Virus genome (UHGV): UHGV-0236227
Length of the DNA: 30,354 bases
Reading direction: 5' to 3' (one strand)
Source of the DNA: a virus
The notes beneath the pieces were generated by a model, which was not told the origin of the DNA, did no database searches, and saw only the letters and a list, made by a program, of their open reading frames with translations. The position numbers were made by a program, and so were the translations under genes. Below are positions 14,292 to 18,313 of the stretch, in pieces (the stretch's first letter is position 1; the number at the start of each line of letters is the position of its first letter).

Positions 14292-14352
14292 CTTTACCCT
14301 CGCTTATCCACATAACTTATTGATTACATTGATAACTAAAAAGATCGTCGAT

Positions 14353-14961
14353 TCATGCCGATCTATTTTTCATCAGTGATTCATAAAACTTTTGCCACTT
14401 ATGCCGACCGAAATTAGCCTTCGAGTTACAGCTCGAACAAAGGCAAATAAGGTTCTCCTGACGACAGTCTTGCTTGTCGTAATTGATGTGATGAGTTGTT
14501 AGCCTTTTGTCTGTTCCATCACAACCTGGGTTCTGACAAGTAAAACCATCTCGCTCAATAACCCTCTTGCTCGTTTCTCGGAAATCCCACGGATACGGCA
14601 ATCTCGATAATCCACCAGACCAGTTTGGATTTCCTTCCCCCTTCATCAGAGAAGAACGCATTATGTTGGAACACTGTTTCGAGCAGCATTTATGACGCTT
14701 CTCATGACTCAAGAAAACGGAGAACGAAGATCCGCATACGCAGCATATTTTTAATACTCGCTTTAGTTCCCGATTTACCGTCTTGCCTCGCTGTGAAATT
14801 CCTACACACTGAAGTGAGCAGAACCTTGAAGATGAGTTGGCTCGCTTAACCTGATATTGCCTGCCACATACGGAACAAACCTTTTCGATTTTCCCACCCT
14901 TCCAATTCGGGTTTTTATCACCGGATACAATCAATCCCGCAGCATTGGGCTTCTCGCTCAT
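14353..14961 (-). CDS. HNH endonuclease
   Basis: 202-aa ORF with duplicated NPNW-GG...C-x-C-G modules and an HNH-type motif (HHINYDKQD...NLICLCSSCN). Confidence 0.7.
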   Translation of the reverse strand: MSEKPNAAGLIVSGDKNPNWKGGKIEKVCSVCGRQYQVKRANSSSRFCSLQCVGISQRGKTVNRELKRVLKICCVCGSSFSVFLSHEKRHKCCSKQCSNIMRSSLMKGEGNPNWSGGLSRLPYPWDFRETSKRVIERDGFTCQNPGCDGTDKRLTTHHINYDKQDCRQENLICLCSSCNSKANFGRHKWQKFYESLMKNRSA

Positions 14962-15311
14962 AGTTCCTCAACCTCCCATCCACCACCGAGCTTTTTAGGT
15001 TTTGGATAAGCAACCTGAAAGACAAACGGATAGCTGTCTGCCGCAACCTTCATCTTGACTCTCGCATCGTCAGTAAAGACTGACTTACTTCCCTTAACGT
15101 CCACCATCACCAACTGCCCGTCAGCCAACATCACGGCAAAATCTAAAGTCAGGAAGCAGTTGTCAGCTAACCGCAGCTTGATACCCTCGAATCGATACCA
15201 GGCGATTTCCCCTGCACGTTTACGCTGCTCAAGGTGCTGGCAATACGCAGATTCTGTTTTGTTCATCTGGCCTGTTTTGAGTCGACCAAGAGCCTGTATC
15301 TGTTTTCTCAT
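14958..15311 (-). CDS. DUF1064-like protein (putative nuclease/resolvase-like)
   Basis: 117-aa ORF; AGGGG Shine-Dalgarno; family assignment recalled, not computed. Confidence 0.45.
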   Translation of the reverse strand: MRKQIQALGRLKTGQMNKTESAYCQHLEQRKRAGEIAWYRFEGIKLRLADNCFLTLDFAVMLADGQLVMVDVKGSKSVFTDDARVKMKVAADSYPFVFQVAYPKPKKLGGGWEVEEL

Positions 15312-15428: not shown

Positions 15429-16211
15429 TTACTTGATAAATCCTGCCGCCTTTCCCCGCCTGTATTCCTCCATCAGCCACTGCGCCGGTGTTATTCCCCC
15501 CAGGGTGGCGGCGTTAGGCATGCACCCGAAACTTCGCCCTGGTGGATGGTAAACGTCTCTCCCTGTATCCGGAGGTGTACTCATGGGTTCTGGCTTTGCC
15601 TGTATGCTGATCACCGGATCGGGTATCTGCTGTCCGGAAGCCACCTTTTTCGCCCAATCATCGAGCAGCCTGCGCGCGTGTTTCTCAACCTCAATCTCGC
15701 TAAGCTGGCGCTGATACATTGCACGGCGGGTATCACATACGACCCAGTACATAACCGGATGTCGCCACGGGAATCTTTCGGGACCACCAGGATATAAACT
15801 TTTTTCCTTGCTGTACCGGTGAAACTCCGCCATCACATCGTCAATGGTGACGCCAAGAACCATCTTGCTGTCTTTACACCACTTGATAAATTGCCCTGGC
15901 GACGGCCAGAACGGAGATTCACTGGCGCGGGCGTGGCGCATACCAGCGTTAACCTGTTCCATTGTTGTGATCCCATTCTCCAGAAACGCAAGCATCCATT
16001 GTTTTCGAAATTCGTTTAGCTTTCCTTGCTCGCTGATAGCAGCGATGCTGCCTGGAAATGCAGCCTGTAACTGGACAAACATTTCGTTGAAAATTCTTGC
16101 AACCTGCTCCTTCTTTGCCCTTTCATCGTCAGCAGAAGCAACCGCCGTCGAGTGGTCATGCCCACCACGAAAGCGATCGTACTCATTAAGAAGTTCTGGA
16201 GTTGATTTCAT
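15429..16211 (-). CDS. Replication protein P-like (helicase loader)
   Basis: Recalled similarity to lambda P (LAFLENGITTMEQVNAGMR...PSPGQF); start taken at ATG 16211 with GAGGTG Shine-Dalgarno (track ORF begins 4 codons upstream). Confidence 0.75.
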   Translation of the reverse strand: MKSTPELLNEYDRFRGGHDHSTAVASADDERAKKEQVARIFNEMFVQLQAAFPGSIAAISEQGKLNEFRKQWMLAFLENGITTMEQVNAGMRHARASESPFWPSPGQFIKWCKDSKMVLGVTIDDVMAEFHRYSKEKSLYPGGPERFPWRHPVMYWVVCDTRRAMYQRQLSEIEVEKHARRLLDDWAKKVASGQQIPDPVISIQAKPEPMSTPPDTGRDVYHPPGRSFGCMPNAATLGGITPAQWLMEEYRRGKAAGFIK

Positions 16212-16977
16212 CCCACACCTCATCTATCCAGTCAGTGTTATGCCAGTCAAGGCTCTTTCTGACTTCACCTGATTTCTGTCTACAGAACTGGATGCGCCTT
16301 GCCAGCTTCTGCTCCCACTGTGCCTGATGGTATGCCTTACCCTCAGCCATCCAGTAAATTCTGAACTCTGCAAGTTCCTGTGCCGTTGGCAGACTGTCCA
16401 GGTAGATTCCCTGCAATGAGCTTTTCCGAAGAAAGTCATCTGATGGCTGCCATTGTTCATGCATGACAAATTTGCCTAATTGCCCTGGCCCACCAGGAGG
16501 AACAAAGTTATTCATCACGGCGTTGTTTGCGCCGGGGTCATGAGGCACAGAATCCCCGGTTTTTGTCCTGCTCTCCCTCTCTTGGTTAAATGACTGGTTA
16601 TATGACTGGTTCTGGATCCCGTTTTTGGGATCATTCAACATCCCGTTTTCGGGAACATTACCGTTTTCGGGTTCATTACACCCTTCTAGGTTGCCTTTAA
16701 TGTTCCCGTTTTTGGTTATATTAAGAGAGAAAACCCGCACTCTTTTTGTCGCTCCCTTTCTCTCTCCGGTATCTGAAATAAGCCCCATTTTCATGAGCGA
16801 TATAAGCCCGGCCTGCACGGTTTTTTTATTCAGGCAAGTGTCTTTAACGAGGCGTTCTATGCTGGGGTAGCAGAGGTTATATTCATCGGCTCTGTCAGCC
16901 ATCGAGAGCAGTATGAGCTTTAATGATGAGCTACCTGGATCTGTCTCCCAGGCCCAATCTGTTGCATGTCTGCTCAT
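16186..16977 (-). CDS. Replication initiator (O-like; N-terminal HTH, C-terminal DnaT-like region)
   Basis: 263-aa ORF with GGAG Shine-Dalgarno; N-terminal winged-helix-like segment, Asn/Gly-rich linker encoded over an iteron cluster, C-terminal region resembling DnaT; overlaps the P-like start. Confidence 0.7.
   Translation of the reverse strand: MSRHATDWAWETDPGSSSLKLILLSMADRADEYNLCYPSIERLVKDTCLNKKTVQAGLISLMKMGLISDTGERKGATKRVRVFSLNITKNGNIKGNLEGCNEPENGNVPENGMLNDPKNGIQNQSYNQSFNQERESRTKTGDSVPHDPGANNAVMNNFVPPGGPGQLGKFVMHEQWQPSDDFLRKSSLQGIYLDSLPTAQELAEFRIYWMAEGKAYHQAQWEQKLARRIQFCRQKSGEVRKSLDWHNTDWIDEVWDEINSRTS
16591..16715. repeat. Origin-like iteron cluster inside the O-like gene
   Basis: TGACTGGTT twice (16591..16611), then four copies of (T)CCCGTTTTYGGG at 16617, 16641, 16659 and 16704, followed by an AT-rich stretch. 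Confidence 0.6.
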
Positions 16978-17193: not shown

Positions 17194-17273
17194 GGTAAGC
17201 CCTGTTATTAGTATTGGGATTACGGTTATTTTGTGCTGACACAAAAAAAAGATCAACCAGATTTGGTTATTTA

Positions 17274-17288
17274 TTACCTTTGAGGTGC
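17274..17288. promoter_or_regulatory. TTACC-N5-GGTGC imperfect palindrome (putative operator)
   Basis: TTACCTTTGAGGTGC downstream of the Cro-like gene. Confidence 0.35.
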
Positions 17289-17343
17289 GAATAGATATGA
17301 AAAGACCGCCGGGTGGCGGTCTACAGAGGGTTGTGACTGGATA

Positions 17344-17574: not shown

Positions 17575-17610
17575 AGCTATTGCCTGATATTTATTTCAGA
17601 TAATAAATAT

Positions 17611-17673
17611 TCACCCATAAGGTAACAAAAATCAAGGATAGTTACCTATGAGGTGCATTTACCTGTTGGGTAA
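17611..17673. promoter_or_regulatory. Tripartite operator cluster in the cro / repressor intergenic region
   Basis: Three palindromes: TCACC-N5-GGTAA (17611..17625), TTACC-N5-GGTGC (17642..17656), TTACC-N5-GGTAA (17659..17673); centre spacings 31 and 17 bp. Confidence 0.6.
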
Positions 17674-17728: not shown

Positions 17729-18313
17729 ATGAAAAGTATCCAGGACGTCCGCAGGCAAAATCTCAACGACTTGATCGACCGTGAATTCAATGGTGTTCAG
17801 ACGCGGATGGCAGAAAAACTTGGAACTCAGGCAAATCTGGTAAACCGCTGGGCTCTTGGCAAGAAGGTTATCGGCGACCAGGTTGCACGAAAAATTGAAG
17901 CTGCCGCCAATAAACCCCGTAACTGGCTTGATATTGATCGTTCGCTTTCTCAGGAGGGTTTTCAGCCTGTCGGCCCGAGCGATATAGGTCAGTTGGCGGC
18001 TCACAACCTGGAACGCTGGATGAGCGAAAGCCGCGACCTTTCAACACAGGGAAAACTTCACCGCGCATCCGGCGTCGCCCAGGTGACAATCAGCCGCCTG
18101 TTAAACAATGAGGTCAGCGTTTCCATTTCCACTCTGGAGAATGTTGCATCCGCATTCGGGCGTCACGGATATGAACTACTGATTCACCCGCACGACCCTG
18201 CGACTATCAACTATGACCGCTCACGCTACGCATTGTTACCCGAAACCGAGAAAGCAAAGATCGAAAGTTACATTGAATTTGTCATCAACCAGAACGAAAA
18301 AAGCAAACAATAA
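17729..18313 (+). CDS. CI-like repressor candidate with two HTH-like segments and no recognisable S24 peptidase domain
   Basis: 194-aa ORF divergent from Cro-like gene; two XRE-type HTH-like segments; no Ser-Lys peptidase motifs recognised. Confidence 0.55.
   Translation: MKSIQDVRRQNLNDLIDREFNGVQTRMAEKLGTQANLVNRWALGKKVIGDQVARKIEAAANKPRNWLDIDRSLSQEGFQPVGPSDIGQLAAHNLERWMSESRDLSTQGKLHRASGVAQVTISRLLNNEVSVSISTLENVASAFGRHGYELLIHPHDPATINYDRSRYALLPETEKAKIESYIEFVINQNEKSKQ

Follow-up and report, generated by a model that had tools for sequence, protein, structure and literature searches.

A putative lambda-type replication origin within the initiator gene of a phiV10-like Escherichia coli phage

Introduction

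The replication origin of phage lambda (ori-lambda) lies inside the initiator gene O, between the parts that code for the N-terminal domain (N-domain) and the C-terminal domain (C-domain) of the protein. At origins of the lambda type, every iteron is contacted by the O protein at its distal Gs, and there are four iterons in lambda and six in Stx phages (PMC7466680). Here we describe a comparable locus in UHGV virus genome UHGV-0236227, of which a stretch of 30,354 nucleotides was analyzed (hereafter the window). It contains the gene of a replication initiator of 263 amino acids (16186-16977, minus strand), and an earlier note on this DNA had claimed that an iteron-type origin is embedded in this gene, as in lambda. 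Comparison with relatives supports that claim, and we consider it quite probable that positions 16553-16722 form a lambda-type replication origin in the linker-coding middle of the initiator gene.

The domains of this initiator are known from other systems. The chromosomal pair DopC/DopE of Cellvibrionales and Oceanospirillales consists of a protein with an HTH_36 domain and a DnaT motif, followed by a lambda P-like protein (Brezellec et al., 2017; PMC5509034). The gene of DopC is chromosomal and domesticated, and according to the same report it has no iteron-like sequences and does not mark an origin (PMC5509034). In E. coli, the C-terminal domain (CTD) of DnaT forms a helical filament on single-stranded DNA (ssDNA) where the helicase is loaded (PMC13377028). 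Rep proteins of plasmids are reported also to bind one strand of the 13-mers (PMC4081077). An origin within the initiator gene is in itself an expected and known arrangement, but the cassette of this initiator family appears not to have been described before.

Iterons and 12-mers Inside the Initiator Gene

The motif CCCGTTTTYGGG occurs four times in the whole 30 kb window at no more than one mismatch, and all four copies lie between 16618 and 16716, within the range given in the earlier note. By chance 0.12 copies are expected, none of the shuffled sequences attained four, and no further copy was found anywhere else in the window at the same threshold. In the direction of the gene, which is on the minus strand, iteron 1 (16705-16716; gene sense ACCAAAAACGGG, plus strand CCCGTTTTTGGT) starts 45 nt before iteron 2 (16660-16671; CCCGAAAACGGT), which is followed by iteron 3 (16642-16653; CCCGAAAACGGG, extended TTCCCGAAAACGGGAT) and iteron 4 (16618-16629; CCCAAAAACGGG, extended GATCCCAAAAACGGGATC). 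Iterons 3 and 4 match perfectly and the other two have one mismatch each. The unit on the gene strand can be written as (A)TCCC(A/G)AAAACGGGA(T), and successive units start 45, 18 and 24 nt apart. The repeats occupy gene nt 262-402, between the coding parts of the HTH_36 domain (amino acids 18-67) and the DnaT domain (amino acids 170-236). The DNA that bears them encodes the linker of amino acids 86-132 (NITKNGNIKGNLEGCNEPENGNVPENGMLNDPKNGIQNQSYNQSFNQ), which is indeed rich in Asn and Gly, and all four iterons share one frame, in which they are translated as P(K/E)NG.

The locus thus has the lambda-type features of four direct repeats with internal dyad arms, (AT)CCC and GGG(AT), at a spacing of about two helical turns. 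The annotated iterons of ori-lambda, which were checked, lie inside O at the same relative position, in line with the comparison drawn in the earlier note. Both loci have CCC...GGG arms around an A-tract (ATCCCTCAAAACGAGGGAT in lambda, ATCCCAAAAACGGGAT here), a spacing of approximately 18-24 nt and a purine-rich stretch after the last iteron; in lambda the iterons ATCCCTCAAAACGAGGGA and variants are followed by a purine-rich AT tract. They differ in that the iterons here are 12-16 bp, with shorter arms, whereas those of lambda are 18-19 bp. Furthermore, three tandem 12-mers take the place of the 40-bp AT-rich tract of lambda, and strong AT-richness is absent here.

These 12-mers (16576-16611, minus strand; gene sense AACCAGTCATAT, AACCAGTCATTT and AACCAAGAGAGG) begin 6 nt past the last iteron and are a candidate DNA-unwinding element. 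The earlier note had recognized part of them as two TGACTGGTT repeats, which were found at 16591-16599 and 16603-16611, with 0.18 copies expected by chance. Both repeat families were also recovered by repeat-finding programs, including TRF. The array overlaps a purine-rich run of 24 nt (16560-16583, minus strand; gene strand AAGAGAGGGAGAGCAGGACAAAAA), which sits where relatives have an A-rich tract but is of average AT content here. Beyond the 12-mers there is a possible degenerate half-iteron, assigned with low confidence (16553-16567, minus strand; plus strand CCGGTTTTTG), and phiV10 has AAAAACGGG at this place.

Some further features of the iterons were observed. Iteron 4 has 5-bp inverted arms (ATCCC/GGGAT) with GATC on each side, so that two Dam sites (16615-16618 and 16629-16632) flank it within its inverted arms (GATCCC...GGGATC). 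Judging from their sequences, close relatives with more iterons of the TGATCCC type would carry more GATC sites; over the whole window GATC shows no enrichment. A perfect 11-nt inverted repeat, CGGGAACATTA and TAATGTTCCCG (16650-16660 and 16698-16708), consists on each side of an iteron end and 7 nt of flank. From its sequence, this may indicate a binding site that is longer than the core of 12 nt; alternatively, it may arise as a by-product because the iteron is quasi-palindromic.

DnaA boxes were searched for as well. No DnaA box (TTATCCACA, at most one mismatch) was found between 15010 and 19021. In the window as a whole there are 16 DnaA-box-like sites at this threshold, with 6.75 expected. 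A perfect box at 14304-14312 lies in the intergenic gap 14292-14352, which is among the least stable 40-bp stretches of the window and is located approximately 2.3 kb downstream of the array.

Conservation of the Repeats in Relatives

Among close relatives whose N-domain is identical, the arrays differ in entire repeat units, as is apparent from indels of 42 nt and 12 nt between the window and phiV10. The phages phiV10 and phiv142-3 have six iterons each, and phiV10 has three copies of AACCAGTCAT. Iteron number is 4-9 in 80 IMG/VR loci (mode 6), and among close relatives in the protein database (at least 78% identity) it ranges from 3 copies (P0012) to 11 (P0039). In Stx phages (933W, P27) the number of iterons also differs by whole units among close relatives. 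Their initiators, however, are true members of the lambda O family with lambda-like iterons, and the range of 3-11 copies is wider here.

To cover distant relatives one genome per species was scanned, which gave 80 loci with N-domains 40-87% identical, 72 of them with complete open reading frames (ORFs). The 11-mer family was counted at no more than one mismatch, and codon-shuffled genes served as controls. At least three copies were present in 64 of the 72 genes and at least four in 55, compared to 12% and 0.6% of the codon-shuffled genes, respectively. In 61 loci at least three copies lie within nt 240-560, right after the N-domain part. Position and orientation of the array are kept: the 64 arrays comprise 297 copies in the genes, against 4 in 149 kb of flanking DNA and 8 on the opposite strand. 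Of the 64 arrays, 53 have their copies spread over two or three reading frames, and the commonest spacings are 17, 22 and 24 nt. In Vibrio salinus, for instance, TCCCAAAAACG recurs at spacings of 17, 17, 23 and 24 nt, with SPKNG, IPKTE and PSQKR as the encoded peptides (L090), and another locus has ten copies that use all three frames (L107). The earlier note had allowed for the case that the repeats merely reflect a repetitive peptide without a conserved arrangement. Since the same DNA motif occurs in different frames in these 53 arrays, the comparison indicates that the repeats are real and selected as DNA, which excludes a mere peptide repeat, and that they are confined to one position and orientation.

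The core CCAA(A/C)ANNGG is common to Enterobacterales, Vibrio, Acinetobacter, Pseudoalteromonas and beta-proteobacteria. CCAAAAACGG is the variant of Enterobacterales, Vibrio and some beta-proteobacteria, CCAACAAYGG that of Acinetobacter, CCAAAAGYGG that of Pseudoalteromonas and CCAAAATTGG that of Edwardsiella phage Edno5.

The relatives share a second element, of which the TGACTGGTT repeats are the version in the window. Two or three units of GAAYCnnnCAnW, with a period of 12-13 nt, follow the last iteron in 66 of the 72 loci, compared to 4% of shuffles; three units are present in 56 loci and the element is found in two different frames. In at least 44 loci, the distance from the core of the last iteron to its start is exactly 6 nt. 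In many relatives the units are followed by an A-rich tract (e.g., TAAAAATAAAAA), and the AT content over 60 nt from the first unit, which includes units and tract, is then 0.68-0.80, compared to 0.56-0.60 for the gene.

This bears on the place of strand opening. The earlier note had pointed to an AT-rich stretch after the iterons, which on the plus strand corresponds to approximately 16716-16740. That stretch is weak, with a GC content of 0.375-0.425 and the 88th percentile of duplex instability in the window, it codes for the final beta-strand of the N-domain, which is conserved (RVFSLNI), and it is probably on the wrong side of the array. Because iterons, then 12-13-mers and then an A-rich tract make up the classic origin layout, the likely unwinding element consists of the 12-mers and the purine run (16560-16611), on the side opposite to 16716-16740. 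The 12-mer region is also the least stable 40-bp stretch within the initiator gene.

The Initiator Protein and Its Coupling to the Repeats

Two domains were recognized in the initiator by Pfam, a winged-helix domain HTH_36 (amino acids 18-67, E 2e-10) and a DnaT DNA-binding domain (amino acids 170-236, E 1e-14). The N-domain (amino acids 1-86, delimited by HTH_36 and the N-domain alignment; 16720-16977, minus strand) is the presumed iteron reader. The C-domain (amino acids 166-241; 16255-16482, minus strand) aligns to solved DnaT C-terminal domains with E about 1e-19 (PDB 6aep, 4ou6, 9zbt), by which it is homologous to the CTD of DnaT that forms filaments on ssDNA. E. coli DnaT (primosomal protein I) has an N-domain of its own and is targeted by PriA/PriB to abandoned forks. 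In the initiator, by contrast, the domain is joined to a winged-helix domain with sequence specificity, and its partner is a P-type loader. The architecture of the two genes, HTH_36 and a C-terminal DnaT domain with an adjacent P-family gene, is identical to that of DopC/DopE, but the window has the phage, non-domesticated form, which keeps its iterons and 12-mers.

The earlier note described the gene as O-like. This is correct by position, by its P partner and by analogy, but not by sequence, as lambda O has a Phage_rep_O N-domain and a Phg_2220_C C-domain in place of HTH_36 and the DnaT-type domain, and the N-domains show no significant sequence similarity. Pfam gave no match of the initiator to Phage_rep_O (PF04492) at E<=0.01 (lambda O itself: 6e-36), and BLASTP against lambda O gave no meaningful match. 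With hhalign, a profile of 34 N-domain sequences aligned to amino acids 1-128 of lambda O in a positionally sensible but weak way, with a probability of 10%. A profile search of the N-domain against PDB returned winged-helix regulators alone, all sub-threshold, and an AlphaFold model made without alignment was unusable (pLDDT 37). On this evidence the initiator is not a member of the lambda O family by sequence.

One similarity to lambda O is found at the extreme C-terminus, where the initiator ends with LDWHNTDWI and lambda O has LDLTNTDWI. The shared motif LDxxNTDWI, which is also present at the C-terminus of Edno5 gp55, may be a contact for the P-type loader. The last approximately 35 residues (16186-16290, amino acids ~229-263) are unlike phiV10 and phiv142-3 and match the tail of the TL-2011b initiator; by this pattern the tail looks like a mosaic junction.

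Plasmid iteron origins (RK2, F, pSC101, R6K) likewise combine a winged-helix initiator with direct repeats at 17-24-nt spacing and adjacent 12-13-mers. They are intergenic, however, and usually have DnaA boxes and Rep_3-type initiators, while the array in the window is intragenic and without DnaA boxes. Pfam identified HTH_36 and DnaT alone, so a Rep_3-type initiator beside an intergenic origin was not encountered.

HTH_36 was present in all 73 proteins examined by Pfam, whereas the C-domains varied: DnaT in seven, Phg_2220_C (the C-domain of lambda O) in five, DnaA_N in two (within the alignment of loci L089-L168, best E 5e-9) and no recognized domain in the rest. In SPN1S and TL-2011b, conversely, this DnaT C-domain is attached to a different N-domain, and there the motif is absent. 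Because the array accompanies HTH_36 whatever the C-domain and is absent with another N-domain, these sequences indicate that N-domain and repeats are inherited as one cassette and that the helicase-recruiting C-domain is exchangeable, with at least four kinds. Joint inheritance of reader domain and repeats, with exchange of the C-terminal end, is the classical pattern of lambdoid O genes. O157 typing phages 9 and 10 were considered as a counter-example, as they match from amino acid 86 on, and were rejected because the match ends 18 bases from the end of a linear record; the N-terminal part is presumably at another place in the record that also matches.

The initiator genes of TL-2011b and SPN1S contain repeats of their own. 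In TL-2011b (L008:1130-1366) a 28-nt unit, GTAACGCTGGCAGCGTTACAAAAGGAGT, occurs twice, and in SPN1S (L007:1083-1402) a 41-nt unit rich in TCCGC/GCGGA occurs two to three times; both N-domains are unassigned by Pfam. These in-gene repeats are candidates for binding sites that belong to a second class of specificity.

Proposed Mechanism and Alternative Explanations

We propose that the winged-helix N-domain, probably as dimers, would bind the four iterons and form an O-some-like nucleoprotein complex. This complex would destabilize the adjacent three 12-mers and the purine run (16560-16611), and several DnaT-type C-domains, gathered by the array, would capture the exposed single strand. The C-terminal tail of the initiator would then recruit a lambda P-type loader carrying host DnaB, and the loader would deliver DnaB. 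As in lambda, the process may be helped by transcription that starts at the early promoter and crosses the region. We infer this course of events, from iteron binding by the N-domain over unwinding of the 12-mers and ssDNA capture by the C-domain to origin activity.

Several observations weigh against an origin at this place. The AT content over 60 nt from the first 12-mer is 0.53, which equals the average of the gene, and there is no marked AT-rich tract. The least stable 40-mer in the gene reaches only the 92nd percentile of instability in the window, and intergenic stretches are far less stable. With four copies the window is near the low end of the 3-11 found in close relatives, and since these copies are all in one frame the argument for selection at the DNA level rests on relatives. 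The N-domain is not detectably of the lambda O family by Pfam, BLASTP or hhalign. In the literature searched there was no published origin for phiV10, epsilon15, Uetakevirus phages or this iteron. Cumulative GC skew, which the earlier note had proposed as a check, was rejected as an origin test: its minimum near 17 kb coincides with the change of gene strand from minus to plus at ~17.6 kb, and with this confounding by gene orientation it is uninformative.

The repeats might instead be control sites, bound by the initiator for autoregulation, handcuffing or copy control, with strand opening and helicase loading elsewhere, for instance at an unstable intergenic stretch. Plasmid iterons have such control roles, the window has no strong AT-rich tract beside the iterons, and it does contain very unstable stretches at 17240-17300 and near 14303, the latter with the perfect DnaA box. 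A pure operator is, however, hard to reconcile with 12-13-mers that are fixed 6 nt from the last iteron in most relatives and are usually followed by an A-rich tract. Moreover, the sites lie in the middle of a gene and not at a promoter, and there is no second site to pair with, because copies are absent elsewhere in the 30 kb and almost absent from the flanks of relatives. It therefore seems unlikely that the array serves for control only. A role as the target of another factor or process at the domain boundary, such as a host protein, a packaging or recombination site or a hotspot of mosaic junctions, would agree with the boundary being a recombination junction at which one module of N-domain and repeats is joined to several C-domains, and with the C-terminal tail of the window being mosaic relative to phiV10. 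Yet the motif varies with the lineage of the N-domain, as the four variants listed above illustrate, and it is absent with the other N-domain type. Since it follows the N-domain lineage across very different hosts, the reader would be the N-domain and not a shared host factor; DnaA boxes are absent from the region. We regard such a target as very unlikely.

Lastly, the repeats could be a low-complexity linker peptide (P-K/E-N-G) that is prone to slippage, with no function as DNA. The single frame and the P(K/E)NG peptide are common to the window and its close relatives, and the copy number varies by whole units as slippage predicts. In distant relatives, on the other hand, the arrays in two or three frames encode unrelated peptides, the commonest spacings are 17 and 22 nt, and the nucleotide core is conserved across orders where the peptide is not. 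In addition, domesticated DopC keeps both domains without iterons (PMC5509034). This makes an explanation by the peptide most improbable, and a lambda-type origin in the linker-coding part remains our preferred reading.

Phage and Gene Context

The window region is 95-97% identical at the nucleotide level to E. coli phages of the phiV10 group (Uetakevirus), and by this identity the source is a phiV10-like temperate E. coli phage. The initiator is 89% identical to phiV10 gp43, annotated as 'replication initiation protein'. Directly downstream, a lambda P-family helicase-loader gene (15429-16223, minus strand; Pfam Phage_lambda_P, E 4e-53) overlaps the 3' end of the initiator gene. Upstream of the replication genes there is a terminator-like hairpin in a tR1-like position (17303-17322, minus strand), which is an annotated terminator in phiV10. 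A promoter-like site of the early operon (17600-17628, minus strand), identified by consensus match alone, predicts transcription through the origin. A small ORF in the cro position precedes the initiator on the same strand, and a divergent repressor-like gene is located at 17729-18313. Because of the P-family loader, the promoter-like site, the ORF in the cro position, the hairpin and the divergent repressor-like gene, this is the context of a lambdoid early-right operon. As in lambda, the loader gene directly follows the initiator, and an early operon with an upstream terminator would traverse the origin.

Downstream of the replication genes, 14353-14961 and 14958-15311 (both minus strand) hold a DUF1064-like ORF and a Cys-rich ORF of 202 amino acids. 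The latter has weak matches to zf-HIT and HNH_3, both below Pfam thresholds. In phiV10, by contrast, the DUF1064 gene is followed by eae-like and ead/Ea22-like genes.

Some related initiators are encoded on circular or plasmid records. In a circular E. coli record of 8461 bp (NZ_CP148379.1, L171) a related HTH_36-DnaT initiator and P are the only recognizable replication genes, and they adjoin dicA/dicC-like regulators. This resembles lambda-dv plasmids and hints, by analogy, at lambda-dv-like autonomy. Two records filed as E. coli plasmids, NZ_CP079771.1 and NZ_CP079768.1 (41,027 bp), encode an N-domain identical to that of the window and are probably episomal phage genomes.

Implications for Phage Replication

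The window could be one instance of a widespread, undescribed class of origins in prophages of Gamma-, Beta-, some Alpha- and some Delta-proteobacteria, a generalization that we put forward tentatively. Its grammar would have three fixed parts, an HTH_36 reader, CCAA(A/C)ANNGG iterons and, after a gap of exactly 6 nt, two or three GAAYC 12-13-mers, swapped as a unit among at least four C-domains (DnaT-CTD, lambda-O-C, DnaA_N and others). In the versions with a DnaT-CTD, the 12-mers would be the place where the iteron array nucleates an ssDNA filament like that of DnaT. If this is true, these phages would provide a simple, sequence-targeted model for how the CTD of DnaT marks the site of helicase loading, and they would also be the likely evolutionary source of DnaT and DopC.

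For the phiV10-like O157 phages and hundreds of related prophages, the array is a concrete and testable candidate origin at a place where current records annotate 'primosomal protein' or 'helix-turn-helix protein' alone. The lambda principle would thereby extend to a second initiator family, in which origin and reader form one cassette and the recruiting domain is exchangeable. The locus would also represent the ancestral phage form of the domesticated pair DopC/DopE and link the ssDNA-filament domain of DnaT to origin-specific initiation. In practice, the segment is a candidate for lambda-dv-like vectors, and it may serve to predict replication incompatibility or exclusion among prophages and to annotate their origins automatically.

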